Assembly: GCA_963682135.1 (NCBI GenBank)
Contig: OY821645.1
Coordinates: 1,184,001-1,248,000 of the forward strand
DNA from: Methanothrix sp.
GTDB lineage: Archaea; Halobacteriota; Methanosarcinia; Methanotrichales; Methanotrichaceae
Direction of reading: 5' to 3'
Length of the DNA stretch: 64,000 nucleotides
Notes under the pieces: model-generated
The model's database searches: none
Told to the model about the DNA's origin: nothing
What the model saw: only the letters and a program-made list of their open reading frames with translations
In this document: in pieces, positions 19,796 to 61,113 of the stretch
How the letters are laid out: every line of letters begins with the position of its first letter
How positions within the stretch are numbered: position 1 is the stretch's first letter
Program-made: the position numbers and the translations under genes

Positions 19796-20893
19796 TTGAA
19801 AGAGTCCAAAATCTGGTTTAGATACAACAAAAAGAACTCCTACAGCATTGCCGCCCTGATGCCGCTGGTAGAGGCGGGCATTGCCAGAGAGCCCAAGGCA
19901 GGCATCATGCTCTACAGCTTTGCCAGCGCCCAGGCACAGGAGGTCTACAGGGAAGTATGCAGCGCTGCGGTGGATGCAGTCTACATCGCCGGCGGCCCCC
20001 ATCCATCGGCTCTGCCAGAAGAGGTGCTGGAGCACTTCGACTTCGTGGTGATAGGCGAAGGAGAGGAGACGCTGCCGGAATTGCTGGATGCCATAAAGGC
20101 GGGCAGCGATCGGGGTAGTGTGAAGGGCATAGCCTACAAACGCCAGGGGCAGGTAATATTTACGGAAAAGAGGACCCCTGTAGACCTGGACTCCTATCCG
20201 CCTTTTAGCAGGATCCTGGCGCCTCTGGAGATCTCGCGCGGCTGCCCCTGGGGCTGCACCTACTGCCAGACGCCGCGCCTCTTCGGAACCTGCATGCGCC
20301 ACAGATCGATTCCGATCATCTCCAAATATGCCCGGCGACATAAGGATATTCGCTTCACCTCGCCCAACTCTTTAGCCTACGGTTCAGATGGGCGCACGCC
20401 CCGCCTGGAGAAGGTCGAGGCCCTGCTCAAGGTACTGGCCGAGCAAAAAAAGCCTATCTACTTCGGCACATTTCCCTCCGAGGTCCGGCCGGAGTTCGTC
20501 TCGGCTGCGGCCTTAGAGCTTATCGTCAAGTACTGCGCCAATAAGAGTCTGAGCCTGGGCGGGCAGTCCGGCAGCCCGGCAGTTTTGCGCAGCATTGGCC
20601 GGGGCCACGGGCGATCTGAGATCCTGAAGGCCTGTGAGCTGGCTCTGGATTATGGACTTGTGCCCCAGGTGGATCTGATCTTTGGCCTGCCAACTGAGCG
20701 GGAAGCGGATCAGCGGTTGACGCTTGATCTGGTCAGGTGGATTGTGGCCAGGGGCGGCAAGGTGCGGGCGCACCGCTTCACGCCATTGCCGGGAACGCCC
20801 CTGGCAGCAGCGCAGCCTGCGCCTCTGGCGGCGGATGTGGTGGCACACCTGGGCAAGATGGCTCTGGAGGGACGACTGACGGGAAGCTGGTAA
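19796..20893 (+). CDS. B12-binding radical SAM protein (TIGR04013-like)
   Basis: AGGPHPS, GEGEE, EISRGCPWGCTYCQTP. Confidence 0.88.
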   Translation: MKESKIWFRYNKKNSYSIAALMPLVEAGIAREPKAGIMLYSFASAQAQEVYREVCSAAVDAVYIAGGPHPSALPEEVLEHFDFVVIGEGEETLPELLDAIKAGSDRGSVKGIAYKRQGQVIFTEKRTPVDLDSYPPFSRILAPLEISRGCPWGCTYCQTPRLFGTCMRHRSIPIISKYARRHKDIRFTSPNSLAYGSDGRTPRLEKVEALLKVLAEQKKPIYFGTFPSEVRPEFVSAAALELIVKYCANKSLSLGGQSGSPAVLRSIGRGHGRSEILKACELALDYGLVPQVDLIFGLPTEREADQRLTLDLVRWIVARGGKVRAHRFTPLPGTPLAAAQPAPLAADVVAHLGKMALEGRLTGSW

Positions 20894-20947
20894 CTATACA
20901 CAATCTTTATATTCAAAACAGTACAATAAAGCTATTGGTGGACTCGT

Positions 20948-21340
20948 GTGGAGCTAAGGTTTGACAACTACATTCTAAAGGCGTTCCTCGCTTCCGGCCT
21001 GCTATCGCTGGTTATGATTGCTCTTGCCCTGGGGCTCATTCAGCTGTTTCGCTACGGCTCGTCCTTGCCCTTATCCATAATTCTCACCATGGCAGCGATT
21101 TCATTCGTTCTTTCCGCTTCATTTTTCGAGCGCTACGAGGTGGGCTCTATCATGTGGTCCATGCTGGTCTCACTCATCGCAACCCTGATGCTCACTCTGC
21201 TATCCGGAGGCATAATCTATGGCATAACTGCCAGGGGGCAGTCCTGGGAAGAGCTGCTCTCGGGCCTGGCCATCTGCATGATCGTGGGCATGACCCTGCT
21301 CTCCTATCTCAAGCGCAGCCTGGGCGAGATTGAGTACTGA
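20948..21340 (+). CDS. small integral membrane protein
   Basis: Four hydrophobic segments; operon position. Confidence 0.7.
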   Translation: MELRFDNYILKAFLASGLLSLVMIALALGLIQLFRYGSSLPLSIILTMAAISFVLSASFFERYEVGSIMWSMLVSLIATLMLTLLSGGIIYGITARGQSWEELLSGLAICMIVGMTLLSYLKRSLGEIEY

Positions 21341-21388
21341 TTGATTGAGTACTGATTAATACTAGCAGCAATACTAAGCAGTCTTTCA

Positions 21389-22288
21389 ATGCCTGGCATG
21401 ATGGTGGACTCCTATGGTCGCAAAGTCACCGGCCTGCGGATCGCTCTTACTCCTCGGTGCAATCTTAATTGCATTTACTGCCACCACGAGGGCGAGGCAA
21501 AGCCCAATGGCGAGATCTCGGATGAGATGGTGGTGAGTGTTGCCCGTGCGGCGGCCCTTTTAGGCGTTCGCTCCCTGAAGTTCACGGGGGGAGAGCCCTT
21601 GCTGCGCCCCGGCCTGGCGGGACTGATCGCCCAGATGCCCCAGGAGCTTGACATCTCCCTGACCACAAACGGCATCTTTCTGGCGGAGCAGGCTGGGCCG
21701 CTGGCAGAAGCGGGGCTGGACCGGGTCAATGTGAGCCTGGACTCGCTGCGGCCCAAGGTCTACCGGGCCATCACCGGTGGCCGGGAAGGCGACCTGGAGA
21801 AGGTCCTGGCGGGAATTGATGCAGCAAAGGCCGCAGCCCTTGCTCCCATCAAGCTGAATGTGGTGGTCCTCAAGGAGAACGAGGCCGAGATTTCCGATTT
21901 GATCGATTTTTGCCGGGAGAAGGGCCTGATACTGCAGCTCATCGAACTCCTGGATCTGTGCCACCAAGGAATTTCAGGAGATATCAATGCCATCGAGCGC
22001 CGCCTTGCGGCGAAGGCGGACCGCGTCCGTGTCCGGGAGATGCACCGGCGCAAGAAGTACTTCCTGGATGGAGCGGAGGTAGAGGTGGTGCGGCCCATGG
22101 ACAACACCGAGTTTTGCGCCAACTGCACACGCCTGCGGGTGACCTCGGACGGGAAGATCAAGCCCTGCTTGCTGCGCAGCGACAATCTTGTGGAGATAGG
22201 CACCTGCGACTGTGAGCGGATTATGGGGCTGCTGCAAGAGGCGAATGCCAGGAGGGAGCCGTATTTCAGGGAGCTTTTACGATGTTAG
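21389..22288 (+). CDS. moaA: GTP 3',8-cyclase
   Basis: DSYGR, CNLNCIYCH, TGGEPL, FCANCTRLRVTSDGKIKPCL. Confidence 0.96.
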   Translation: MPGMMVDSYGRKVTGLRIALTPRCNLNCIYCHHEGEAKPNGEISDEMVVSVARAAALLGVRSLKFTGGEPLLRPGLAGLIAQMPQELDISLTTNGIFLAEQAGPLAEAGLDRVNVSLDSLRPKVYRAITGGREGDLEKVLAGIDAAKAAALAPIKLNVVVLKENEAEISDLIDFCREKGLILQLIELLDLCHQGISGDINAIERRLAAKADRVRVREMHRRKKYFLDGAEVEVVRPMDNTEFCANCTRLRVTSDGKIKPCLLRSDNLVEIGTCDCERIMGLLQEANARREPYFRELLRC

Positions 22289-22295
22289 TTGCGAT

Positions 22296-22517
22296 CTAAG
22301 ATTCATAGTTGGGATTGCCTTTGAGAAGCTCGATAAGCGCATATGTATCTGCGAATAGTTTAGCTATTGATCTCTCTTCGTTCGTCCTTCAGAGATTGTG
22401 CGTCAATCTTCCATACTTTCAAGAGGCAAAAGATGATTTTTTTCTTCAATTCAATCACTACCTCTTCCCCCTCCGATAGGTCCGGGATATCAAGAGGCAT
22501 CAGGACTTCATATATTT
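22296..22517 (-). pseudogene. decayed antitoxin (DUF104-like) plus VapC/PIN toxin 5' remnant
   Basis: IYEVLMPLDIPDLSEGEEVVIELKKK...WKIDAQSLKDERR followed by AKLFADTYALIELLKGNPNYES*. Confidence 0.65.
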
Positions 22518-22795
22518 AGCCCGAGGCTCTCAGGAAGGATGCATACCGTCTGGTCGTGCTCCCCCGCGTGCGCGTGCGGGCGAGCGCGGGCGGCTGGCAG
22601 TGCTCAGGCGGGCCCCGGTGCGTGTGGGAGCCGGGCCGGATGACGGAGGATATCGCTGCTCGGAGGGCGCACTGGGAAGCGAGCAACTGCAGCCTCTCGT
22701 GGCTACGGTTATGGCAGAAAGCATGATGGTTGGAGTGCATTAGCTCGCTCACTTTTCCGGCCCGGCACCAGAAGTATTTTATTCTAATGTAGATT

Positions 22796-23083
22796 ATGAA
22801 TATTACTATGGGAACAGAAGCCACAAGAGCGGAGTCTGAATCCATTATCAGGGATGCGCTCCGCTGAGATCTATCTCTTTTCGAGAGCAAGGAGAGGTTA
22901 ACCTTTTCAGAAATATTGGAGATGGAGCGCAAATACGGCATGAACTCCCATGACTTCCTGGATAGATTCCAAAAAGGCACTCTGGGAGATGACCAAGATT
23001 ATTTCGTGTGGTGGAGCTTGGTTCACGGCCTTGAGACGATAAGAAGTCGAAAGGATAAGATAAAAAGGATGCTCGTTCCTTGA
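22796..23083 (+). pseudogene. antitoxin-like gene (TumA-like) with an in-frame TGA at 22865
   Basis: MNITMG...ALR*DLS...MERKYGMNSHDFLDRFQKGTLGDDQDYFVW; followed by a truncated overlapping ORF MISDYFQKVE. Confidence 0.6.
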
Positions 23084-23262
23084 TATCCGATTACTTTCAG
23101 AAAGTGGAGATCGCGTCTTCGCCTTCCAGTATCAGTCCTAGCTCTATGGGATGAGCCATCTACAAAAACTCTGCCTAGTGTTGGATATTCTATGTTTTTA
23201 AGGCTTTGCAGTAATCGACTACGCTCCAAGCTTTAAGGGGCTTAGGATTAGCAAGAGCTACA

Positions 23263-23829
23263 TTAAAGGCTGCTATTTTCATAACACGGCTCCTCCATCC
23301 ATGGGTCCAGAGATTCCAGAGGCTTTAGCTGTCTGGCTGCTTCACGCACGTTCAAGAACATTCTGCGACTCTTCTTCAGATATTTGAACCCAAAGCCCTC
23401 ATAAAACTTCGTAGCATCCTCTTTTGGGTCCACAACCAGATATCTGCATCCGATCGGACCGTCAAGAGCCGCACCTATGGCGAATAGAAGCAGAAAAGTT
23501 CCAAGTCCACGACCATGAAGTCTCCGATCCACGGCAAGCCGGGCAATCAGAAGGCAAGGATAGATAGGATACTTGCTGACATCTGGGCACTCACCATCAT
23601 CGAGACGATCCACACGAACTGAATCTGCGACCAATGCAATGTAACCTGCAACACGATCTCTGCAAAAGCATATGTGCGTTTTGTTAAGAAGGATTTCCTG
23701 CTCGCCTAATGCATCTTCTTTCAAAAACAGATTTAGATCTTCATCGCCGGAATCGAATGGCGTCAGGTTAAACCTGGCACTCAGAGGCTCGATGCTCAGT
23801 TCATCAGGCGAAATCCTTTCCCGGACCAT
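23263..23829 (-). CDS. GNAT acetyltransferase toxin (AtaT/TacT-like)
   Basis: FDSGDEDLNLFL, LIARLAVD, GRGLG, FYEGFGF. Confidence 0.85.
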   Translation of the reverse strand: MVRERISPDELSIEPLSARFNLTPFDSGDEDLNLFLKEDALGEQEILLNKTHICFCRDRVAGYIALVADSVRVDRLDDGECPDVSKYPIYPCLLIARLAVDRRLHGRGLGTFLLLFAIGAALDGPIGCRYLVVDPKEDATKFYEGFGFKYLKKSRRMFLNVREAARQLKPLESLDPWMEEPCYENSSL

Positions 23830-23981
23830 TAAAATCTGCTGCGATTGGCTCTATAAATTCGTTTGGCTTCTTTAAACATGGCTAACTGCCTTGGCGTAAA
23901 TACAGTGATCTCTTCGTTCTTCCAGAACTCCTTTGCTGCTTCACCTTCGAGAACCAAGCCCAGCCGGATCGGTTTTGCCAT
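23829..23981 (-). CDS. 50-aa putative antitoxin of the GNAT toxin (not in ORF track)
   Basis: MAKPIRLGLVLEGEAAKEFWKNEE...; TAATG stop/start overlap with the GNAT gene. Confidence 0.7.
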   Translation of the reverse strand: MAKPIRLGLVLEGEAAKEFWKNEEITVFTPRQLAMFKEAKRIYRANRSRF

Positions 23982-24145
23982 CTTTCGCACCATCCTCAGG
24001 AATGCTAATTATGTTCCACTATTATTTAATGGTAATCGATCTCATGTGGAGATAGAGACGCGTTAGTCAGGATTGGCATTAGCACCACATGCGCGCTACC
24101 GCGTCCCGGCGTGCGTGTGCGGGGCGAGCATGTGGGGCGGCGGAG

Positions 24146-24672
24146 GAGCCTGGACTCGCTGCAGCGTGAAGTCTACTGGACCATCACCGGTGGCCGGAAG
24201 TGCGACCTGGAGTGGGTCCTGGCGGGAATTTATGCCGCTCTGGCCGCAGATCTATCGCCCATCAAGCTGAATGTGGTGGTCCTCAAGGAGAACGAGGCTG
24301 AGATTTCTGATTTGATCGATTTTTGCCGGGAGAAGGGCCTGATAATGCAGCTCGTTGAACTCCTGGATCTGTGCCACCAAGGAATTTCGGGTGACATCGA
24401 TGCCATCGAGCGGCGTCTGGCTGCGCAGGCGGAGCGCGTCCGTGTCCGGAAGATGCACCGGCGCAAGAAGTACTTCCTGTATGGAGCGGAGGTGGTGCGG
24501 CCCATGGACAACGCCCCAGTTTTGCGCCAACTGCACACGCCTGCGGGTGACCTCGGACGGGAAGATCAAGCCCTGCTTGCTGCGCAGCGACAACCTTGTC
24601 GAGATAGGCACCTGCGACTGTGAGCGGATTATGGGGCTGCTGCAAGAGGCCAACGCCAGGAGAGAGCCGTAT
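24146..24672 (+). pseudogene. moaA: degenerate duplicate of the 3' part of moaA (matches 21733-22264)
   Basis: Long near-identical stretches with indels and a frameshift; no 5' half. Confidence 0.92.
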
Positions 24673-24798
24673 CTTGGGAAGGATAGGTCGCAGGCCGGGC
24701 GATCGGCAATAATCGCACCCAGGATTAGATAAATTTCTTCACAAGTTTTAATACCTCTGCTCTCATTTTCATCTTGATTAGAATTGCGGGGTGGGGCG

Positions 24799-25233
24799 AT
24801 GGTTACGAACTTAACTTTGGAGCGGATGGAAGGCCAGATCAAATGGTACAGCGAAAAAAGCTCCTGGAATCAGGAGTGGTTTAAGAAGCTCAAAGTGGCG
24901 GAAATCATTGCTGCTGCGCTGGTTCCTTTTGCAGCCGGCATAAGTGCACCGGCAGCATTTACTGGACTTCTGGGCGTAATAGTAGTAGTGCTCGAGGCGC
25001 TGCAGAGCATTTACCAGTTCCAGAGCAACTGGATATCCTACCGGTCTACGGCTGAAGCGCTGAAGCACGAGAAATATCTCTGGTATGCCAGAGCGGGGCA
25101 TTACCTCAATGCTGAGAATCCAGAGGCGCTGCTGGCGGAGAGGATTGAGGCGCTGATCTCCACAGAGAACGCGAAGTGGATCTCGGACAAGGAGCAGGCA
25201 GGAAAGGCAAGGCCGACAACGGTGCAACAGTGA
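24799..25233 (+). CDS. DUF4231 / SLATT 2TM protein
   Basis: QIKWYSEKS, two TM helices, WISYRSTAEALKHEKY. Confidence 0.88.
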   Translation: MVTNLTLERMEGQIKWYSEKSSWNQEWFKKLKVAEIIAAALVPFAAGISAPAAFTGLLGVIVVVLEALQSIYQFQSNWISYRSTAEALKHEKYLWYARAGHYLNAENPEALLAERIEALISTENAKWISDKEQAGKARPTTVQQ

Positions 25234-25357
25234 TGAATAATATTAATTCATTATTTATTAAAATTTTAACTCAGTGAAGGAAGCCTTTTAAGTATGCACA
25301 AATGAATGCCTGTAGGCGATGAGGCTGGCCGAATACAGGAAAAAGGTGTCTTAAAAA

Positions 25358-26692
25358 ATGGCAAATACGCAGGTGCCCTCTGAAGGCATTGAGGTCTTCT
25401 TTTCATATTCCCATAAGGATGAAGAACTGCGAGATGAGCTGGAAAAGCATCTTAGCATCCTGAAGCATCGAGAGTTAATCTCGGCTTGGCATGATCGAAA
25501 AATTAGCGCAGGCGAGGAATGGAAAGGGATGATTGATGAACACCTCAATTCTGCCAAAATTATCCTACTTCTCATCAGTTCTGATTTTCTGGCATCGAAG
25601 TACTGCTACGATATTGAAATGAAACGTGCCATTGAAAGGCATAATTTAGGGGAAGCCCGCGTGATTCCAATAATCCTTCGGCATGCTTATTGGGAAGGTT
25701 CACCATTTTCAAAGTTGCAGGCTCTACCCACAAATGCAGAACCGGTTAAAGACGGAAATTGGAGATCTATTGATGCGGCATTTAAAGATGTAGCAGAAGG
25801 CCTGGAAAAAGCAATAAATGGCTTCAAACAGGAAAATATTTACTTAGAGCCTATTCCAACACCAAGCAACAATGTGCCGAAAACAATAATAGTAGACCAA
25901 ATGCATCGAGGCGATTTCACTAAGATTACAGATGCCATCTCTGCATCAGCTCCCGGCTCACGAATTCTGGTGCGATCCGGTGTTTATGATGACGGGTTAA
26001 TAATCGATAAACCCCTGGAGATCGTGGGTGAAGGCAAACTAGGCGATGTGATAATAAGGACCGTTGGGATGAGTGCTATTCTATTCAAGACCGTAAGAGG
26101 CAAGATATCTAACCTCCTGATCCGTCAAAATGGTGGCGGCAATTGGTATGGAGTAGATATCGCCCAAGGATGCCTGGAACTAGAAAACGGTGATATTGTC
26201 TCCGAAAAGTTTGCCTGTGTTGCAGTACATGGCAATGCTTATCCAAGGATCATGAATAATAATATCCATGATGGGAGAAGTAGTGGTGTTTATGTTTTTG
26301 AAAACGGTCAAGGCGTTCTCGAAAGTAATGAAATCTATGCCAATAACCATGCTGGTGTCATGATCTCGGGTGGTGGAAATATAACAATTAGAAATAATAA
26401 TATTTATAATGGGAAAAATGTTGGCGTTTGGGTAGGTAATAATGGTAGAGGTATTATCGAAGATAACAACATCTACGGTAATGCAATGGGTGGCATTGAT
26501 ATCATAAAAGGCGGCAATCCCTCTGTCCGAGTAAATCGAATAAATGAAAATAGCTATTGGGCTATCTGGATCAATGAAAAAGGTGCTGGGACCATTGAGG
26601 ATAATGACCTTCGTAATAATAGTAGCGGCGCATGGCATATATCCGAAGACAGCAAACCTCTGGTCAAATGCTCCAGAAATCTGGAAAAGTGA
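25358..26692 (+). CDS. TIR domain + right-handed beta-helix (pectin-lyase-like) protein
   Basis: VFFSYSHKD, WHDRKI, ISSDFLASKYCYDIE; C-terminal NxIxxN repeats. Confidence 0.9.
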   Translation: MANTQVPSEGIEVFFSYSHKDEELRDELEKHLSILKHRELISAWHDRKISAGEEWKGMIDEHLNSAKIILLLISSDFLASKYCYDIEMKRAIERHNLGEARVIPIILRHAYWEGSPFSKLQALPTNAEPVKDGNWRSIDAAFKDVAEGLEKAINGFKQENIYLEPIPTPSNNVPKTIIVDQMHRGDFTKITDAISASAPGSRILVRSGVYDDGLIIDKPLEIVGEGKLGDVIIRTVGMSAILFKTVRGKISNLLIRQNGGGNWYGVDIAQGCLELENGDIVSEKFACVAVHGNAYPRIMNNNIHDGRSSGVYVFENGQGVLESNEIYANNHAGVMISGGGNITIRNNNIYNGKNVGVWVGNNGRGIIEDNNIYGNAMGGIDIIKGGNPSVRVNRINENSYWAIWINEKGAGTIEDNDLRNNSSGAWHISEDSKPLVKCSRNLEK

Positions 26693-26734
26693 GAAAATGA
26701 TTTAATGAAGCTGGCTCGTTATCCCTCCCCCCAA

Positions 26735-27090
26735 TCCTGTGCTCGTATCCCATCGCCTCCACCCGTCGCCGCTGGCCTCCCTGCACCATCCAGATCCCCT
26801 CCGCCACCACCTTTCTGATCATCGTCAGGGCGCACACCTTGCGGGCGGCCTCCAGCCCCTCCGGCCTCCCTGTGAAGACCAGCTCGATAGTCCCCCTCTC
26901 ATGCTCATTGCCATCTCCACAGCTCTCTCCCGCCCCACCATCTCCGCCAGGCCGTCGCCCATCATGGCCGTGACTGCCTGGCTCTCGGCCAGGGTCCGGG
27001 TCTCGGCGAGGCGCGGCTCGTTATCCAGCAGCCGCGTGATGAACACGCTCTCCAACTGCGCGCTGCCAGGCCCACAGGCCCCCGCCCGCG
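26735..27090 (-). pseudogene. thiL: degenerate 3' fragment of thiamine-monophosphate kinase (copy 1)
   Basis: EPRLAE..LAESQAVTAMMGDGLA, ends GYEHRI; similar to 30040-30520. Confidence 0.65.
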
Positions 27091-27207
27091 CGCGCCCACC
27101 TGCGACCCCGCCGTCTTTGCTGCAGAGATGGCTCTTTTTCTCGGAACCTCTTTGTATTTTAGTCGGAAGATTGAATAAAGATGAACTCCATAGACGCCTT
27201 CTGGTAT

Positions 27208-27504
27208 ATGCCCCAGAAAATTGATGAGCTGCTGAAATCCAAGCGTCAGGAGATTTTAGCCATAGCAGCCCGACATGGCGCCCGCAACCTTCGGGTCTTC
27301 GGCTCCGTAGCCCGAGGAGAGGCCGGTCCAGAGAGCGACCTGGATATTCTTGTAGAGATGGAACCGGGAAAAAGCCTATTGGACCATGTAGCTCTCATGC
27401 AAGATCTCGAAGACCTCCTGCAACGGAAAGTTGATGTGGTTAGCGAGAGGGCTCTGCACTGGTACATCCGGGACCAAGTTCTCGCTGAGGCTACGCCACT
27501 ATGA
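27208..27504 (+). CDS. minimal nucleotidyltransferase antitoxin (MNT)
   Basis: VFGSVARGE..SDLDILV. Confidence 0.92.
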   Translation: MPQKIDELLKSKRQEILAIAARHGARNLRVFGSVARGEAGPESDLDILVEMEPGKSLLDHVALMQDLEDLLQRKVDVVSERALHWYIRDQVLAEATPL

Positions 27505-27845
27505 AGGACGACCGGCTTTACTTGATTCACATCTGGGAATGCATTCAGCGCATCGAGTCTTACTCAATTGAAGGTAAGTCTGCATTCATGGCATCAATAA
27601 TGATGCAAGATGCAATTATCAGGAACTTTGAGATTATAGGAGAAGCCACCAAGCATCTATCGATGGATATGAGACAATCAAATCCCGAAATCCAATGGCG
27701 AGAACTGGCAGGATTTCGAGATGTTCTAATCCATAATTATATGGGAGTTGATTTGGTCGAAGTCTGGAATATCATAGAAAATGAACTCCCCAAAATCAAG
27801 AACAGCCTTGAGCCAATAATGGTTAAGCGTCAGTTGCTTTTGTAA
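27501..27845 (+). CDS. HEPN toxin, DUF86 family
   Basis: EIIGEA, GFRDVLIHNY (Rx4H). Confidence 0.92.
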   Translation: MKDDRLYLIHIWECIQRIESYSIEGKSAFMASIMMQDAIIRNFEIIGEATKHLSMDMRQSNPEIQWRELAGFRDVLIHNYMGVDLVEVWNIIENELPKIKNSLEPIMVKRQLLL

Positions 27846-27859
27846 GTTTCGATACAGAT

Positions 27860-28120
27860 AGTCCTGGTTGTCAAAAATTACATGCTCCACCACATTCTGG
27901 AATGTAGCAGATATTGCCGTTGTCCGTGATCACCGGCCCGTCCTTCCTCAAGCCCTATCGCCGCACCAGGGCGCCCCTCAAGTCCCGCAGCCGCGGCTCC
28001 ACCAGTCGCAAGGCAAATGGTAGCACCTCAACGGCATCGGCCAGGTGAGCTTCTTTGCATACAGTTCTCATTCGCCACAATCATGAACCACTTGGCAAAG
28101 CGGGATACCGCCTTTCCCCG
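27860..28120 (-). pseudogene. rpiA: degenerate 3' fragment of ribose-5-phosphate isomerase A
   Basis: Minus-strand pieces VEVLPFALRLVE and RKDGPVITDNGN, plus a VVEH-like end. Confidence 0.7.
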
Positions 28121-28339
28121 CGCACGCCCGCCCGCGGCCCTGTCACCCTTGATAGTGAAATGCAAACGGCCTTCTTGCCTCATCTCCTTTGATGAGCCTA
28201 AGCGATCCTGTAGAAAGACACGAAGACAAAGAGAGGCCTCCGAATTATTATTAATATTTTTATATTCACTTTTCACCCATACCAATAAATAAAACCAACA
28301 TTCTATAGTTGTACGTTAAAAGTAATCCTTCGATCAATT

Positions 28340-29551
28340 ATGCCGGAAAAGCCAGCGCCAACCGAGCGATCAGGCAAGAATCGCAGCATCATCATCCCCG
28401 TCAAGCCAGCCGTGCTAGTCTGGGCCAGAGAGAGCCTGGGCAGGACCGTCGAAGAAGCTGCCGCTTACCTGGGCGAGAGTGAAGATCTGGTGCGCCGGTG
28501 GGAAGCAGGCCACGGCCAGCCCATGCTGCATCAGGTAAAGGCACTGGCCGTTTTCTACAAGCGTCCCCTGGCTGCATTCTTTCTGCCTCGCCCTCCCCAG
28601 GAGCCCTCCCTGCCCCACGACTTTCGCACTCTGCCTGATGAAAAAGAAATCCCGCTCACTCCCAAAACCAGGCTTGCCATGCGCCGGGCAAGAAGGCTGC
28701 AATCAATAGCTTCTGAGCTAAAAGAAGACCTGGAAGGCGAATTATTCTCTCTGCCGGGCAGCATCGAGCTTTCCGATGATCCCGAAGTAGCAGCAGGCAG
28801 AGTAAGAGATGCTTTGGGCGTTTCCCTGGCAGAGCAGCTCTCCTGGAAAAAGGATACGCAGGCTATGGATCAATGGAAGAAATCTGTGGAGAGACTTGGC
28901 ATCCTCGTGTTTCAGATGTCAATGCCGCTGGAAGAGGCGAGAGCTTTTTCATTCACGGATGGAGGGCTCCCGGTAATAGTAGTCAATAACAAGGACGCTT
29001 TGAAGGCCAGGATTTTTTCCCTGTTCCATGAGCTGGGACATATCCTCCTGAATGAGGGCGGCATATGCGACCCAGGTAATTTGAATGGTGATGCGTCTTC
29101 TCCAAATAGCAGGTCCATCGAGGCCTTCTGCAACTTTTTTGCCGGGGCGGTTTTGGTTCCCCGGGAAAGCTTGCTCAATCATCGATTTGTTGAGGGAAAG
29201 TCATCTTCCTACCACTGGCCGGAAAGAACTCTGGGAACAATTTCCGGTGATTTTAAAGTGAGCAAAGAGGTCGTTTTAAGACGGCTGCTCATTGCCGGGC
29301 TGACTACCAGGGAATTCTATCAAAGAAAGCACAACGAATGGATGAAGAGAGAGAAGAAACCGGAATCAATCAAAGGCATAAAGAGAGATATTCCAAAGGA
29401 ATGCCTGCAAAGAAACGGCAGGCCATTGACCTCAATGGTTCTGGATTCATATAGAAATGACAGGATCACCACCAGCGATGTGGCCGACTATCTGGGAATT
29501 CGTGTTAAGCACATCCCCGGCATTGAAAAGCTCCTTGAGGCTCAGATTTGA
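28340..29551 (+). CDS. XRE-HTH + ImmA/IrrE metallopeptidase
   Basis: WARESLG..WEAG; FSLFHELGH; EAFCNFFAGAVLVP. Confidence 0.9.
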   Translation: MPEKPAPTERSGKNRSIIIPVKPAVLVWARESLGRTVEEAAAYLGESEDLVRRWEAGHGQPMLHQVKALAVFYKRPLAAFFLPRPPQEPSLPHDFRTLPDEKEIPLTPKTRLAMRRARRLQSIASELKEDLEGELFSLPGSIELSDDPEVAAGRVRDALGVSLAEQLSWKKDTQAMDQWKKSVERLGILVFQMSMPLEEARAFSFTDGGLPVIVVNNKDALKARIFSLFHELGHILLNEGGICDPGNLNGDASSPNSRSIEAFCNFFAGAVLVPRESLLNHRFVEGKSSSYHWPERTLGTISGDFKVSKEVVLRRLLIAGLTTREFYQRKHNEWMKREKKPESIKGIKRDIPKECLQRNGRPLTSMVLDSYRNDRITTSDVADYLGIRVKHIPGIEKLLEAQI

Positions 29552-30029
29552 TCCAGCTTCGGTTGCAAGAAGGCTACTGCATCGATACATCTGCATTGAT
29601 CGACCTGCACACTAACCATTATCCTCCTGATATCTTCCCCTGTCTATGGAATGACCTGGAATCCCTGGTTGATCAGGGACTCTTAATCGCTCCTGATGAG
29701 GTGTTTCGAGAAATCTGCGTGAAGGATGATGATTTGGCAAAGTGGGGAAAGGCCAATCGGAAGATGTTCACTCCCCTTGATGACGATCAATCCGAGAAGT
29801 CTACAGCATCCTGGAAAAGTTTCCTGGCCTCGTGGATTTGAATAAAACTATTCCTGAAGCAGACCCGTTTCTTATTGCCCTGGCTAAATGCAGAGCCTGG
29901 ACGGTTGTTACATCGGAAAAGCCTAATAATAGCCCAGTCAGGCCGAAGATACCGAATGTATGCAAAGGCCTCGATGTCAGATGGATCAAATTGCTGGAGT
30001 TCTTTAGGGAAGTGAAGCTGAAATATTGA
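29548..30029 (+). pseudogene. DUF4411 PIN-domain protein, frameshifted near 29790
   Basis: YCIDTSALI in one frame; ADPFLIALA, VVTSE and KIPNVC in another. Confidence 0.8.
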
Positions 30030-30039
30030 TAGGATGATC

Positions 30040-30520
30040 GGCATGCAATCCTGTGCTCGTATCCCATCGCCTCCACCCGTCGCCGTTGGCCTCCCTGCAC
30101 CACCCAGATCTCCTCCACCACTACCATCTCTCTGATCACCGTCAGGGCGCACACCTTGCGGGCCGCCTGCAGCCCATCCGGCCCGACGGTGAAGGCCGGC
30201 TCATAGTCCCCGCCCGTGCTCATCACCATCTCCCGCGCCTATCTCCGGTCCCACCACCTCCGCCAGGCCAGCGGCCACGGGCAACGCCTCTTCCTGCACC
30301 ACAAAGCCCACCCGGCTCACCTGCGCCAGGTCGGAGAGCGAGAGCGCCAGGCCGTCGATGTTGTCCATTACGGTCGTGACTGCCTGGCTTTTGGCCTGGG
30401 CCCGGCCCGCGGCCAGGCGCTTCTCGGGCTCCAGCGGCCTCGTGATGAACTCGCCCTCCACTGCACTGCTGCCAGGCCCACAGGCCCCCGCCCGCCCGCG
30501 CCCAGCGCGCGCGGGCGGGA
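30040..30520 (-). pseudogene. thiL: degenerate 3' fragment of thiL (copy 2)
   Basis: MDNIDGLALSLSDLAQVSRVGF..LP, GGDYEPAFTV, GYEHRI. Confidence 0.75.
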
Positions 30521-30705
30521 CGAGCCTGCACATATGCGGCGGGGTAGGCTTTGGCGGAATCTTTTCCATATGCTCAATATATTTATTTTTTTCGTCCAAA
30601 AAAGATAAATTAATCATGATTGAATCACCCAATTGAGGATACAAATGAGCAGATCGACATTTTTGACCAAAGGCTTTTTATTTGATCCTGCGATGATACC
30701 CCGAT

Positions 30706-31224
30706 ATGAAGAAAGGGAATGCGCTAATGGCATTAATCTTGTTGTTTAGTGCGGTGGTTTTCGTAACGCCGTTGGCTTTACCAAAAGAAGAACCTATGGC
30801 CGTACCAAATGCTTCGCTAAGCGCATTATCCAACAAGACCGAACTCGTTTCATTTGTTGAGAGTGCTGTGGCCTATGCCCAAAAGAACGGCAAAGATAAA
30901 GCACTCAAGGAGTTCAGCAATAATACCGGCTTATTTGTCCAAGGGGACTTCTACATCTACGCTTACGACTTCAATGGAACTTGCCTTGCCCACCCATTCA
31001 AATCCGATTGGATAGGCAAAAACAAGCTGGATGTAACTGATTCGAATGGCGTTCCATCTCTCAAGAACACTATCAATGTAGCCAGGGAGGGGAAAGGATT
31101 CACTTACTTCATCTTCCCGAACCCTGCTCACGATAATAGAGATGAATTCAAGATTGCTTACGCGATGAAAGTGGATGACGATTGGTTCCTTGGATCTGGA
31201 ATCTACATATCGTGTCCGCAATAG
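30706..31224 (+). CDS. secreted single Cache domain protein
   Basis: YIYAYDFNGTCLAHP, D.NG, WFLGSGIY. Confidence 0.85.
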   Translation: MKKGNALMALILLFSAVVFVTPLALPKEEPMAVPNASLSALSNKTELVSFVESAVAYAQKNGKDKALKEFSNNTGLFVQGDFYIYAYDFNGTCLAHPFKSDWIGKNKLDVTDSNGVPSLKNTINVAREGKGFTYFIFPNPAHDNRDEFKIAYAMKVDDDWFLGSGIYISCPQ

Positions 31225-31469
31225 ATAGCTATTCAAATTTTTGCTTTTGCGTTCAGGTCGTCAGTCTCCGCTACCGTCCCCTTAGTCAGTCATTAGGGAA
31301 GTCGTGAAGATTCTGCTAGTACATCTGGGCCTAATTAGCGCCCATGATTATGAAGGAATAATGCATCTTTTTAAACGCCTGATCGTTTTTCGCGGCTTCG
31401 CGTGAGATTCAATAGGGTCTGGTTTCGCGCGACGACACGAAGCCCCGATGTCAAAATATTGGTCTATTA

Positions 31470-31595
31470 TCATGGAAAATGAACTCCGCCAAATCGAGCA
31501 GCCTTGAGCCAATAATGATCGAGCGTCAGTGGCTTTTGTAAGTCTCGATACAGCGCGTCCAGTATGTCAAATATTTCCGTGCTCTACCACACCTA
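31470..31595 (+). repeat. diverged copy of 27773-27895 (HEPN gene 3' end plus rpiA-fragment end)
   Basis: GAAAATGAACTCC...CAGCCTTGAGCCAATAATG...GCGTCAGT.GCTTTTGTAAGT.TCGATACAG shared. Confidence 0.8.
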
Positions 31596-31775
31596 ATATG
31601 GGACTGATCTTCTCCGCCAATGCCTCTGGCTCCTTAGTTGTTCCTAAGTCCAAGTCCATGAAGAAGTTACTGTTGTCCTGATCATACAGGCTGCTAAATC
31701 CAGAATTTTAATGATGATATTACACGCAAGTGTCTATTAATATTAGGAATGCATTCTAGGGTATGGAGTGCAAAA

Positions 31776-32183
31776 ATGAGACTTAGAGTAATCAGCGCCA
31801 GAAATGAAATACCAAATTTGAACCCAAATGAGAAGACAGTTCACCTGGCCTTCCGAGCCAGTAATGTAGATTTCCTTAACCTGATGCAGAGATGCCCCAG
31901 GCTGAGAATGATTCAGGTCCCGCCATCCTACCGCAAGACTATGTCCAATGCCATCCAGGTATTCCTGGAGATGCAGGGCGTTGAGATGCTGGAAGGCGAC
32001 GTATGGGGCCACAGAAAAGACCTGGATGAGTACTTCACTGTAGAAGATGCCACTATGGAAGAGATTCGCGCCCTGGCTGCCAGCGGCGCATCTGCCGATG
32101 ATGTAGCCAATCAGATTCAGAGAAAGTCCAGGATCGGCTCAGAGCTGATCAAGTACATCGCCAAGACTAAAATTACCGCCTGA
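31776..32183 (+). CDS. DUF1699 family protein
   Basis: MRLRVISARNEI..VHLAFRASN..EGDVWGHRKD. Confidence 0.85.
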   Translation: MRLRVISARNEIPNLNPNEKTVHLAFRASNVDFLNLMQRCPRLRMIQVPPSYRKTMSNAIQVFLEMQGVEMLEGDVWGHRKDLDEYFTVEDATMEEIRALAASGASADDVANQIQRKSRIGSELIKYIAKTKITA

Positions 32184-32324
32184 GTCCGCAACTCTGTGCC
32201 CGGCTCAGCTACCCCCCCCTAATTTATTATTTGTCGATTTTCTAGTCCTATATTTTTTTCGACCGCCAACTACAAATATCTATAACGATTATATAGATAG
32301 TTTGTCGCTTCGTGCCATTGAATA

Positions 32325-32726
32325 GGGTGGCGGGTGTGCCGTGGGCTTAACGTATCCGATGATGCTCTGATGATGGAGATGCATGCCTTCGTGGCACTGC
32401 ATTTGGCTACGGGCCTGTGAGGCTGTAAAACATCGGCGGGCTGAAAAAGTTGCGTGCTGTGACAGGTGCAGCAATCCGCCGGATCTCACGCTAATACACG
32501 GTCGGGGGCACGAGTCGGCACAGGTAGAAGCCGAGGACGAGAGGGCGAGCAGCATGGCCCTGCGAGAAAGGGTTCCTATAAAACGGACGCTGTGCGAGAT
32601 TCCAGCGCTAATGCCGCCTTCCACCCAGGCTAATTAAAGTCGAGCTTCGGGCAGGGTCAGGCCACCACCTCGCGGTGATTGGCTCCTCTGCAAGAGGGCG
32701 CAGTGGATTATGCGCAGGCCCTGCCT
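32325..32726 (+). ncRNA. candidate large structured ncRNA
   Basis: Terminal pairing, many hairpins, 3' four-way junction, TATA-like element at about 32289. Confidence 0.6.
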
Positions 32727-32888
32727 GGGACTTGATATCGCTTTTCTTGATCATTACTCTGAGCAGGATAGTATGTTCTCAACTTGAAGCGAAATCCTTT
32801 TATCTCGGTAATTGACGTACAGTGTATTGGCGAAAGTCGATGGCCAAATTTCCCTCCTACATCCAATTGACTTTCTCCTCCCTCCTTC

Positions 32889-33524
32889 TTATCCATATTT
32901 CAGGAACCTTAAATTTCCTCCAGCGTTTCTATGCCGATCTTCTTCACGGATCAGCTCATCTTCCACAGCCAGATTTCTGTTCACCCAGTAAAACCGGGAA
33001 AAGAGCAATCCCACAGTTGGGCAGTCGTCCGGCTCGTACCACTTCAGATAATCTTCGATATTATCAAAGTGGCTCGGTGCATCCGGATGGTATAAACCTT
33101 CCCAGGGCATGGGAGTGGGCGGCTTGGCGGTTACATCCATAGAAAGCAGTTCCCGGCACAGATAGAGGAGCATGTTGCTGATGTTATCCTCTCCTCCATA
33201 GGTTAGGTAGGCATTGGCGGTGACCACAACCTTTGCAGGTGCTGAGGAGCTGAGCCAGTATGATTGATCGTCGCCGAGGCATACGATGGGCTTACGCTTT
33301 CCGATCTCACTCATCTTGGGCTCGATCTCATCCCAGAGGGCTTCGCTGCCGCGATGCGTGAAAATCAGGTCTGATTGTTCCATGGACTTTATTGCTTCGT
33401 CCAGAAGGCCGGGCTGATCGTCCAGTCGCTGGGTGGAAAAGAGCCGCAGATCGAATCCGAGGCGCTTGCAGGCTTTGGCAATTATCTGCAGATATGAATT
33501 TCCAACAAGACAGGTGAGTTTCAT
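32889..33524 (-). pseudogene. cobN: truncated cobaltochelatase CobN (N-terminal ~200 aa only)
   Basis: YLTYGGEDNISNML, PWEGLYHPDA, VGLLFSR; stops far short of the usual >1000 aa. Confidence 0.8.
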
Positions 33525-61022: not shown

Positions 61023-61113
61023 GGGCTCGTAGCTCAGTTAGGCAGAGCGTCTGGCTTTTAAATTTTTGTGTGAAGATACCAGGTGGTCGAGGGTTCAAAT
61101 CCCCCCGAGCCCG
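61023..61113 (+). tRNA. tRNA-Lys(UUU) with a 17-nt intron at position 37/38 (61061-61077)
   Basis: Acceptor stem GGGCTCG/CGAGCCC, D arm, anticodon CT-TTT-A, T-loop GTTCAAAT, BHB-compatible intron. Confidence 0.92.

Follow-up and report, generated by a model that had tools for sequence, protein, structure and literature searches.

Housekeeping-gene tails and a GC-rich repeat as apparent entry points for defence cassettes in Methanothrix

Small defence and toxin–antitoxin (TA) cassettes appear to enter the chromosome of Methanothrix through the tails of housekeeping genes or through a GC-rich repeat, forming integron-like arrays without an adjacent integrase. The displaced gene ends that they leave are the footprint of an already known process; the novelty lies in the extent of that process in an archaeon, together with TA arrays delimited by the repeat. 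Methanothrix is a main acetate-using methanogen, and its routes of gene exchange are poorly known. Many chromosomal gene-gain hot spots carry no mobile elements, and the first entry of new genes into them is still to be explained. In this genus, which lacks recognisable competence genes, the relics document every event with its order and incoming allele, at ten loci of a single archaeal genome and genus-wide, so that single-crossover capture becomes directly testable with population long reads. The process is probably an integrase-free, homology-anchored capture, in which circles closed by microhomology are taken up by homologous recombination.

Results

A cassette array behind moaA

The window is a stretch of 64,000 nucleotides from the genome under study (Methanothrix sp. 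GCA_963682135.1, here G000; compared genomes carry G numbers and loci L numbers). It holds displaced 3' halves of moaA, thiL (twice) and rpiA among cargo genes. The array order and coordinates of a first-pass annotation held on re-examination, with three corrections (the rpiA relic, the GC motifs and an extra repeat copy). That annotation had described all four fragments as 3' portions, which is right for moaA and both thiL relics; the rpiA relic ends at nt 533 of 693 and lacks the true 3' end. The features are, from left to right:

21389..22288, plus strand: intact moaA (GTP 3',8-cyclase), anchor gene of the left insertion (NCBIfam TIGR02668 above cut-off; Pfam)
22290..22545, minus: decayed AF2212-like/PIN TA cassette, of a type intact in relatives' arrays
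22554..22732, plus: GC-rich cassette-delimiting repeat, copy 1, diverged (nhmmer 25.9 bits, E 8.6e-6)
22809..23258, unstranded: decayed pair of small cassette genes, comprising a gene with an internal stop and an antitoxin-like remnant (translations)
23263..23994, minus: GNAT toxin-like gene (23263–23829; Pfam GNAT) and small upstream antitoxin-like ORF
24088..24145, plus: GC-rich repeat, copy 2, as a decayed left arm plus core to which the moaA relic is fused
24146..24681, plus: displaced moaA 3' part (nt 345 to ~880), frameshifted; its aligned portion, 24146–24672, covers moaA nt 345–876 at 90% identity
24784..26692, plus: SLATT-like (DUF4231) gene and TIR-beta-helix gene (Pfam; PADLOC: ThsB-like TIR)
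26721..27098, minus: thiL relic 1 (nt 473–936, internal deletion), 78–80% to parent
27075..27110, unstranded: junction of thiL nt ~470, CG core and the GC leader natively preceding the MNT gene (leader alignments with L286 and L077)
27181..27845, plus: MNT-HEPN (HepT-like) TA pair (Pfam)
27914..28122, minus: rpiA relic (nt 323–533), 3' end deleted, 76% to parent
28105..28140, unstranded: junction of rpiA nt ~320, CG core and the GC leader natively preceding IrrE (alignment with G015 L264)
28340..30029, plus: IrrE-HTH gene and frameshifted DUF4411 gene (Pfam)
30046..30513, minus: thiL relic 2 (nt 464–923), separately joined at the same GC-rich site of thiL, 82% to parent
30706..31224, plus: Cache-domain protein, cargo (Pfam sCache_2)
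31468..31684, unstranded: second HEPN 3' end, then rpiA remnant; what is left of a further MNT-HEPN-rpiA copy

To the extent that contigs can show it, the array is confirmed as real and correctly assembled. Long contigs from runs X10 and X11 bridge all relic–cargo 5' junctions with 0 differing letters and even depth, so the copies are not an assembly artefact; the bridging is junction by junction, no single contig spanning the whole stretch, and X10 and X11 may be the source sample. The window contains no tyrosine recombinase, the three tyrosine recombinase loci of G000 all lying elsewhere, at least 270 kb away.

Repeat copy 1, an addition to the four GC motifs noted before, was found with a model built without the window copies, and a reversed-genome control gave no hit. 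Copy 2 scored 22.3 bits (E 4e-4, 0 control hits) with a core model that had this copy in its training set and just 10.6 bits (E 0.41) with the independent full model; it sits where L076, L077, L078 and L087 have the repeat behind the same GNAT leader. The cassettes between these copies have counterparts elsewhere. The decayed PIN cassette matches the G004 locus L085 at 85% (22302–22506), its translation matching the PIN gene of L262/L085, and the decayed genes at 22809..23258 match G000:1887060-1887348 and the rpiA-side arrays of relatives. The GNAT cassette has 86–90% protein identity to array cassettes in G059, G050, G013, G010 and G015 and is native to repeat arrays; judging from its position, the small ORF upstream of the GNAT gene probably acts as an antitoxin.

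An old moaA–thiL interval

The intact parent of both thiL relics lies at G000:2378616-2379554. Among 59 genus genomes searched, moaA and thiL are convergent on one contig in 18 and <200 bp apart in 8. They are ancestral convergent neighbours in the genus, and thiL has since moved away in G000; the thiL relics in the window therefore mark insertions at thiL that predate its departure. Synteny thus speaks against the earlier idea that the relics themselves had been relocated. G024 offers the mirror case, with moaA relics remaining beside thiL, and in G060 a thiL relic and a moaA relic are joined head to head. In G052, G061, G004, G054, G017 and G072, SLATT and/or TIR genes immediately follow moaA or occupy the moaA–thiL gap; they are native cargo of this interval. 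The 5' end of thiL relic 1 carries codons of relatives, and its junction is also present, at the identical site, in G015 L042; the sequence upstream of thiL relic 2 is unrelated to that upstream of relic 1. The array is best explained as the old moaA–thiL interval, filled by at least four capture events.

Part of its cargo belongs beside rpiA, whose intact parent copy lies at G000:82618-83310. MNT and/or HEPN genes are found just past the rpiA stop in G059, G049, G058, G011, G047, G041, G020, G053 and G074, and the MNT-HEPN pair is native beside the rpiA 3' end in relatives. The IrrE/DUF4411 genes are also native to this neighbourhood, the order in G059, G053 and G074 being IrrE-DUF4411-MNT(-HEPN)-rpiA. 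The window order, MNT-HEPN-rpiA' followed by IrrE-DUF4411, is a circular permutation of that arrangement and gives indirect support for a circular intermediate. In the second HEPN/rpiA copy, 31468–31591 is 82.5% identical to 27770–27894, and the rpiA remnant (31549–31684, minus strand, nt 515–650) is 74% identical to rpiA. An independent junction in G015 L072 joins rpiA nt 319 to the right arm of the repeat.

Displaced gene ends across the genome and genus

Ten loci in G000 carry a displaced 3' fragment in direct orientation beyond cargo. A check for partial 3' duplicates found nine besides the window (ftsY, alaS, argH, aroC, a Cas4-like gene, an Fe-S protein gene and three others), each with an intact gene, cargo and a same-strand 3' relic 0.6–18 kb downstream, versus three pieces of the opposite type, 5' pieces lying upstream. 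The footprint of gene, cargo and displaced end is also found across the genus, with resolved alaS relic junctions in 17 of 59 genomes, and comparison of the moaA, thiL and rpiA regions showed the cassette loci to be variable between genomes and strains, as the first-pass annotation had expected.

Collapsing 94 junctions left 74 independent ones, with scattered start points; shared starts mostly reflect shared upstream sequence by descent. In independent events the moaA relics begin at nt 322, 345, 397, 441, 504 and 507, and no fixed att core was found at the 5' boundary of displaced fragments among the 74 junctions. Homology-facilitated illegitimate recombination is marked by short microhomology at the join and a GC preference. 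Microhomology at the non-homologous join is visible at the five junctions displayed and in the thiL/rpiA leader alignments, and ~20 bp of chance similarity link a 5' piece of moeA with a 3' piece of aroC.

Integrative elements such as e14 at icd restore the 3' end of a protein gene. As in that case and in Campbell-type integration generally, the Methanothrix loci show an intact gene with a new end, cargo and a displaced relic in direct orientation; unlike them, they have no integrase, arms of 100–600 bp, variable starts and no fixed att core. The relics could be attR scars of ordinary protein-gene-targeting elements whose integrases have since been lost, which would account for the shared footprint, for broken tyrosine recombinase genes in G000 and for the RadC and restriction-modification genes that flank some arrays. 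However, start points vary among independent events at each gene, no integrase remnant is annotated at any relic locus examined, and young inserts measure only 1–4 kb, which makes this origin very improbable.

Relic and intact copies as two alleles

Pooled over 21 relics, relic and intact copy differ at 394 silent and 352 replacement sites, a dN/dS of 0.30 that lies below 0.5, the lowest value expected if a copy arises in place and then decays (p 4e-13). An EVE-like gene has 0.05 and ftsY 0.06, the moaA relic has 0.30 (23 silent and 23 replacement differences), and three relics have 0.46–0.83. Individually, 8 of 21 fall below 0.5 at p ≤0.05, the four main window relics not among them (p 0.10–0.31). 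These data support the view that relic and intact copies behave as different alleles. At ftsY in G000, 8 of 10 derived states up to nt 735 belong to the relic and 9 of 10 past nt 798 to the intact gene, a reciprocal mosaic with a permutation p of 0.002 over all breakpoints; such a mosaic is clear at ftsY only, alaS, moaA, thiL and the Fe-S gene showing mixed patterns. The ftsY module of G000 is 94.8% identical to that of G049, and the flanking core region 88.5%.

The mostly silent differences and the ftsY mosaic together point to single-crossover integration of DNA from relatives. The first-pass proposal of Campbell-style entry, in which a 3' gene arm with cargo regenerates the gene and leaves a relic, gains support from the two alleles, the ftsY mosaic, the rpiA permutation and the variable loci. 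Alternatively, gene ends may have been copied in place by microhomology-driven tandem duplication, with cargo arriving separately through double crossover in the core genes on either side, and ordinary allele replacement of the intact gene afterwards producing the silent-site excess. A tandem moaA relic pair in G024 and several relics nearest to the allele of their own genome fit this account, and the sections of PMC5635113 drawn on here describe such a double-crossover route for hot spots without mobile elements. We nevertheless consider it quite unlikely, as it predicts neither the reciprocal ftsY mosaic, nor different cargo behind each relic, nor permuted rpiA-side modules inside the thiL hot spot.

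A GC-rich repeat delimits toxin–antitoxin arrays

The repeat (~190 bp) separates shuffled TA cassettes and was found in Methanothrix only (in 14 of 58 genomes of the genus and none of 242 others); copies 1 and 2 in the window belong to its family. Its arrays, in G059, G050, G013, G010, G015 and metagenome loci, consist of 3–5 same-orientation copies ~0.5–1.3 kb apart with one small TA module per interval. The 42 copies combine 17 upstream and 21 downstream contexts in 35 combinations, one repeat end being fixed and adjoining 17 distinct leaders. In L286, L288 and G015 the core is the point at which arms have been exchanged. Polymorphisms at repeat positions 11–110 track neither flank, as expected if exchange is possible along the repeat, in a test of low power because most variants are singletons.

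The repeat core is an imperfect palindrome with 86% of cells paired; 371 of 500 shuffles pair equally well, no hairpin covariation rises above shuffles (5 cells changed on both sides), and folding energy is no better than that of shuffles (z-scores −1.1 to +1.6). The attC boxes have the consensus RYYYAAC and GTTRRRY; of the 42 copies searched together with their flanks, one has the full pair and two have either box close to where the repeat starts. No PF00589 tyrosine recombinase was found on the array contigs of G059, G013, G015 and G010, or anywhere in G050 (97% complete), which carries a five-copy array, and no serine resolvase was found in G000. An Rfam search of L077 and of the array gave no match over the repeat at gathering scores. 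Further TA arrays of G000 have unrelated, array-specific GC repeats.

When 21 copies were compared with the G000 proteins by blastx, the best E was 0.002 and the hits agreed on no target, which gives no support to an origin of the repeat as a decayed piece of a host protein gene.

The first-pass annotation had each fragment start at one GC-rich motif. A GC-rich motif is indeed present at all four junctions, but the four are not one sequence: 24088–24145 is a decayed repeat copy, 27075–27110 and 28105–28140 are gene/GC-leader junctions, and 30480–30540 consists mostly of Gly/Ala codons that belong to thiL itself and recur in relatives, plus a short repeat-like left arm. As a general module boundary the motif fails: of 74 independent junctions in six genes, six have the CG core and seven the originally proposed pattern. 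Against a background of 1–3%, six is nonetheless an excess (p 0.02 to 0.0004). Three of 11 thiL starts fall within one 26-nt stretch (p 0.01), and the thiL and rpiA sites, marked by the CG core, are each reused by independent junctions. The fixed repeat end with its 17 leaders and these reused sites count against plain homologous recombination and are not explained by it.

A trans-acting site-specific recombinase, as yet undescribed, might use the repeat as its site; the TA arrays would then be integron-like (CALIN-like) and the thiL, rpiA and moaA junctions events at secondary look-alike sites. Array layout, flank combinations, the fixed end, the palindromic core, core arm swaps and the CG-core and thiL-start excesses all agree with this reading. 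We judge it unlikely, given the missing recombinases, the lack of covariation, folding signal and attC boxes, the 68 of 74 gene junctions without the CG core, and the unrelated repeats of other G000 arrays. A broader proposal, tentative and rather doubtful, would make the repeat the functional recombination element of an undescribed archaeal cassette system, an integron analogue without IntI or attC. A trans-acting factor or a structure of the CG core would direct breaking and joining at the core and capture TA cassettes, and look-alike thiL, rpiA and moaA sites would build circles of gene arm plus cargo that re-enter relatives by homologous recombination.

Discussion

Under the homology-anchored capture that we favour, a donor segment comprising the 3' half of a gene and the cargo behind it would be closed to a circle or trimmed as a linear piece. 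The join would fall between two GC-rich look-alike stretches, with the self-complementary CG core favoured though not required. The module would then pass to a related strain or species, where a single homologous crossover in the gene arm, as the footprint indicates, would restore the gene with the donor end and displace the old end and older cargo downstream; repetition would yield polar arrays. With cargo (MNT-HEPN) or the non-coding GC repeat serving as the shared arm instead of a housekeeping gene, modules could reach other hot spots and cassettes be shuffled. Rearrangements between hot spots, evident in synteny, would finally part relics from their parent gene, as with thiL. Among the contigs examined, no circle or joined form appeared. 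A Ku gene adjoins an ATP-dependent ligase gene in G000. ComEC (PF03772) and DprA (PF02481) were not found in G000; control searches show them mostly missing from archaea, so their absence leaves other uptake routes possible.

The closest described parallel is the Vibrio T6SS effector–immunity arrays and Rhs orphan 3' modules, attributed in the sections of PMC5361080 drawn on here to homology-facilitated illegitimate recombination with sequential displacement, and compared there with integrons. Shared features are one homologous anchor, one illegitimate join, old 3' parts in a polar array and no integrase (PMC5361080). Unlike those arrays, as presented there, Methanothrix uses housekeeping genes and a non-coding repeat as anchors at at least 10 loci per genome, carries TA/defence cargo in an archaeal host without ComEC or DprA, and has one locus with a reciprocal mosaic of the kind that a circular donor would leave. 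The hot spots treated in the corresponding sections of PMC5635113 share fast gene turnover between core genes, recombination in flanking genes and lack of an integrase; the double crossover proposed there leaves no displaced gene end, whereas single-anchor events in Methanothrix leave relics recording insertion order.

Integrons and CALINs, including archaeal ones as described in the parts of PMC9668308 used here, resemble the repeat arrays in same-orientation repeats, small shuffled cassettes rich in TA genes and acetyltransferases, and no adjacent integrase. Methanothrix differs in array contigs without IntI or other recombinase, attC boxes or hairpin covariation, and in repeats of ~190 bp that are truncated on one side and array-specific; a linked IntI is dispensable for a CALIN. 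Because the arrays share the layout of integrons and fail the recombinase, attC and hairpin tests, they would be built by host recombination alone or by an unknown recombinase. In Data S1 of PMC9668308, one Methanotrichaceae genome (genus Fen-7) is listed with 2 attC sites.

Displaced gene ends in the window and across the genus

The subject genome, G000, is complete and in a single contig (3.04 Mb), of which the window takes up positions 1184001-1248000. BLASTN of window positions 20001-33000 against it confirmed the order of the array and of its relics (displaced, decayed gene parts) as described in the first-pass annotation, recovering two thiL relics, one rpiA relic and a second HEPN/rpiA junction, and Pfam upheld the names given to the cargo. 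The description of the relics as 3' portions held except for rpiA, whose relic stops at nt 533 of 693.

Gene copies in the array and intact genes elsewhere in G000 (coordinates; feature)
24146-24672; moaA copy, 90% identity (BLASTN against G000)
31549-31684; second rpiA remnant, nt 515-650 (sequence comparison)
G000:2378616-2379554; intact thiL (BLASTN; named by NCBIfam)
G000:82618-83310; intact rpiA (BLASTN; named by NCBIfam)

Contigs of two sequencing runs (X10 and X11, which may be the source sample of the assembly) covered the array with even depth and 0 differences, the whole array never lying in a single contig. As these contigs agree across the junctions, an assembly artefact was rejected. 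In a wetland run (X1), position 23110 was joined to moaA nt 345, which is the same moaA junction minus the GNAT cassette (one contig, depth 6); strain joints of low depth in wetland runs (26797 to 30257, depth 2.7) were too weak for use. The DUF4411 gene at 29548-30029 is split by a frameshift and is intact (161 aa) in genome G059.

Comparing G000 with itself for partial 3' duplicates, as had been proposed, we found ten loci at which an intact gene is followed by cargo and then by a same-strand 3' relic of that gene; transposases and clear paralogue families were excluded by eye. The genes are moaA, ftsY (two relics), alaS, argH, aroC, an Fe-S protein gene (three), a Cas4-like gene (two), a TudS-related gene (two), an EVE-like gene (a label resting on a weak NCBIfam match) and a large methyltransferase gene. 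Three 5' pieces sit upstream of their parents; one upstream 3' piece and two internal pieces did not fit. The cargo, named partly by recognition of sequences, is mainly toxin-antitoxin (TA) pairs and small accessory genes.

Among 59 genus genomes, thiL relics occurred in 10, moaA relics in 5 and alaS relics with resolved junctions in 17, and Fe-S gene relics were present in many relatives. In the loci examined, a subset of all matches, 94 resolved junctions (5' relic boundaries) reduced to 74 independent ones, whose start points were scattered. G041 (L089) carries a pair of short 3' relics of rpiA with a shared junction, and in G001 (L193) and G060 (L134) the Fe-S gene is present in tandem copies of almost full length.

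Relics carry alleles other than those of the intact genes

A copy made in place and then decaying is expected to show a dN/dS of at least 0.5 against the intact gene. Pooled over 21 G000 relics, dN/dS was 0.30 (394 silent and 352 replacement changes; P = 4e-13), which, being below 0.5, indicates that the relics are other alleles than the intact genes. Eight of the 21 were individually significant (P ≤ 0.05): ftsY (0.06), EVE-like (0.05), two of the Fe-S gene (0.11 and 0.06), a thiL relic outside the window (0.11), aroC, argH and moeA. The four main window relics had values of 0.30-0.38, none significant alone. Duplication in place, with the allele replaced afterwards, is a quite unlikely account of these loci.

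At ftsY, sites were polarised against 21 relatives and three ambiguous sites dropped. Up to nt 735 the derived state is that of the relic at 8 of 10 sites; after nt 798 it is that of the intact gene at 9 of 10 (permutation P = 0.002). This pattern is a reciprocal mosaic, of the kind that one crossover with a circular donor would leave in the sequence; since three of the eight early derived changes are replacements, some may be decay. The remaining loci are too old or too mixed for such a pattern. The second ftsY module has a junction common to G000 and G049 and 94.8% identity, versus 88.5% in the flanking core region, which suggests that it may have moved between species. A tree of the 3' part of the Fe-S gene, in which a single one of the two long relics from G000 was included, had poor resolution, with 7 of 22 branches starred.

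Relics have become separated from their parents by rearrangement

moaA and thiL are convergent on one contig in 18 of 59 genus genomes, many of the others being fragmented, with a gap below 200 bp in eight. In relatives the interval holds variable cargo and relics of both genes, and G024 mirrors G000: its moaA relics stay beside thiL while the intact moaA lies elsewhere. Given this ancestral convergence and the mirror case, the thiL relics stayed put and thiL itself moved, at odds, for these relics, with the earlier proposal that modules can later be relocated.

By comparison with relatives, the native place of SLATT-TIR is the moaA-thiL interval; MNT-HEPN, IrrE-DUF4411 and the GNAT cassette natively lie behind rpiA. 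The native order is IrrE-DUF4411-MNT-HEPN-rpiA in G059 (similar in G053 and G074), and that of the window is MNT-HEPN-rpiA relic-IrrE-DUF4411, with the second HEPN-rpiA remnant further on. The window order is thus a circular permutation of the native one, which, we infer, a circle opened at rpiA nt 320 and entering through shared MNT-HEPN sequence would produce.

In L074 (G007) and L075 (G060) rpiA faces ftsY, and in other relatives each gene has different neighbours. These changing neighbours indicate that the hot spots double as rearrangement breakpoints. A multi-copy non-coding stretch, at 32259-32905 in the window, accompanies in many relatives both the moaA-thiL hot spot and that of rpiA, and at G000:2183035 its end adjoins a thiL relic. 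It may serve as a homology arm in rearrangements.

A GC-rich repeat separates TA cassettes

Two GC-rich tracts, at 22554 and 24088, are members of a repeat family that was first spotted behind the same GNAT leader in relatives. The repeat is ~190 bp long (~77% GC over the first 120 bases). Its left end is fixed and its right end is truncated variably; between them lie an imperfect palindrome surrounding a CG core and then another conserved block (alignments A1 and A2). Same-orientation arrays of 3-5 copies occur in seven genomes (G059, G050, G013, G010, G015, G024 and G014) and in metagenome loci, and the interval between copies is usually one small module (AF2212-like/PIN, DUF4258/MqsA-like, GNAT with partner, or HicA).

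The 42 copies have 17 different contexts upstream and 21 downstream, which came in 35 combinations, indicating that cassettes are shuffled at the repeat. Polymorphisms at positions 1-10 track the upstream cassette, those beyond ~120 the downstream cassette, and those at 11-110 neither (low power). If exchange always took place at one fixed point, all variants to the right of the core should go with the downstream cassette; at this low power, positions 11-110 show no such tie.

BLAST with one query found the repeat in 17 of 58 other genus genomes; a second query, with two candidates scored per genome, found it in 14 of 58 and in 0 of 242 other genomes of the class. In the window itself the copies have diverged too far for BLAST, and only a profile search recovered them. 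Among viruses, a 30-nt repeat pattern had 0 exact matches, and a looser pattern hit three viral contigs in which the repeat model matched nothing.

Several identities for the repeat were rejected. It had no Rfam match as a known RNA and no protein match as a host gene fragment, and alignment A2 lacked the terminal inverted repeats of a MITE. As an attC-like hairpin it showed palindrome covariation no better than shuffles and no attC boxes; folding energy was likewise no better than shuffles, a z of -3.0 being reached only by the second thiL junction. The arrays look like CALINs (PMC9668308) but failed the tests for attC sites, for a hairpin and for an integrase.

Other TA clusters of G000 (24-33 kb, 462-465 kb and 1436-1440 kb) carry unrelated GC-rich repeats of their own between the cassettes, as one would predict were any GC-rich anchor able to seed an array. 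One linked family of such repeats comprises 29 segments.

Other TA clusters with array-specific GC-rich repeats, including the three above (G000 coordinates)
1436050-1439700
462090-465100
591700-597000
24245-33400
795000-797200
871340-872140

Genes for RadC/JAB, HsdR_N and an N6-methyltransferase lie behind the last repeat at three loci (L077:4706-5758, L265:11257-14203 and L287:1418-5777).

CG-rich join points are reused at a minority of junctions

The first-pass annotation had each relic begin at a shared GC motif. The motif is real at the window junctions, and the comparison across genomes bore out variable cargo and recurring relics; as a single, universal boundary it failed, being found at 6-7 of 74 junctions. 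The CG core is present at 6 of 74, against a background of 1-3% (P = 0.02-0.0004), and this enrichment is real; later deletion may have erased some cores from the other 68. Joins by homology-facilitated illegitimate recombination (HFIR) prefer GC. With native leaders (the GC-rich sequence ahead of a cassette gene) aligned, the idea that the motif is merely the genes' own GC-rich codons was partly true at thiL, where the tract is close to the gene's Gly/Ala codons in relatives, and wrong for rpiA and moaA.

Join points were used more than once. At locus L286, the MNT leader consists of the left arm and core of the repeat followed by a right arm of another kind; in G000 and G015 this same right arm meets thiL nt ~470 at the core. 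Three independent junctions fall at thiL nt 458-473, including a head-to-head thiL-moaA join in G060. In the window, the rpiA relic is linked at nt ~320 to the leader native to IrrE; an independent junction in G015 links rpiA nt 319 to the usual right arm of the repeat. At L308 (G000:1581441-1581960), a 5' piece of moeA runs into a 3' piece of aroC across ~20 bp of chance similarity, so such joins need only microhomology. The shared stretch encodes the same short peptide in both genes, and at the fusion point moeA contains a sequence resembling the left arm and core of the repeat.

Recombination functions and a possible route of capture

Two of the three tyrosine recombinase loci in G000 have internal stops, and none of the three lies at a relic locus; that the relic loci are decayed integrase elements seems very improbable. 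Serine resolvase, ComEC and DprA were not found in G000, and its seven matches to IS200-type Y1 transposases include none inside the array. A site-specific system acting in trans is unlikely: no tyrosine recombinase was found on the array contigs of five genomes checked, or anywhere in G050 (97% complete). At G000:2211230-2213139 (L306:6230-8139), Ku adjoins an ATP-dependent DNA ligase in an NHEJ-type pair, which had 0 matches in archaeal controls. Such pairs are uncommon in archaea.

The route that we consider probable, with moderate confidence, is capture in three steps: circles would form by microhomology joining, with the Ku-ligase pair as candidate agent; DNA would pass between relatives; and a RadA-type single crossover would integrate it. 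The earlier reading, in which modules integrate Campbell-style into the cognate gene and regenerate it, is supported in part by the displaced ends, allele divergence and ftsY mosaic; its universal motif and the relocation of the thiL relics fall away.

The Methanothrix footprint works like Campbell insertion-duplication. For Vibrio T6SS and Rhs loci, sequential-displacement arrays have been proposed to arise through HFIR (PMC5361080), and the Methanothrix arrays work alike. The loci also belong among the hot spots that lack mobile elements, where double crossover has been proposed (PMC5635113). The gene-end footprint is already known, but its occurrence throughout an archaeal genome, the evidence from alleles and the hitherto undescribed TA arrays delimited by the repeat together make a concrete case open to test. 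We found neither the repeat nor the pattern in Methanothrix described in the literature searched, most subscription papers and other papers' supplements lying outside that search.

Other features of the window

Positions 31749-32183 hold a DUF1699 gene with five more copies in G000 (at most 89% identity), frequent within relatives' hot spots. A short palindromic repeat at 31314-31468, with many G000 copies, resembles the REP-like repeats of other microbes. The single tRNA gene, at 61023-61113, is distant from the array.
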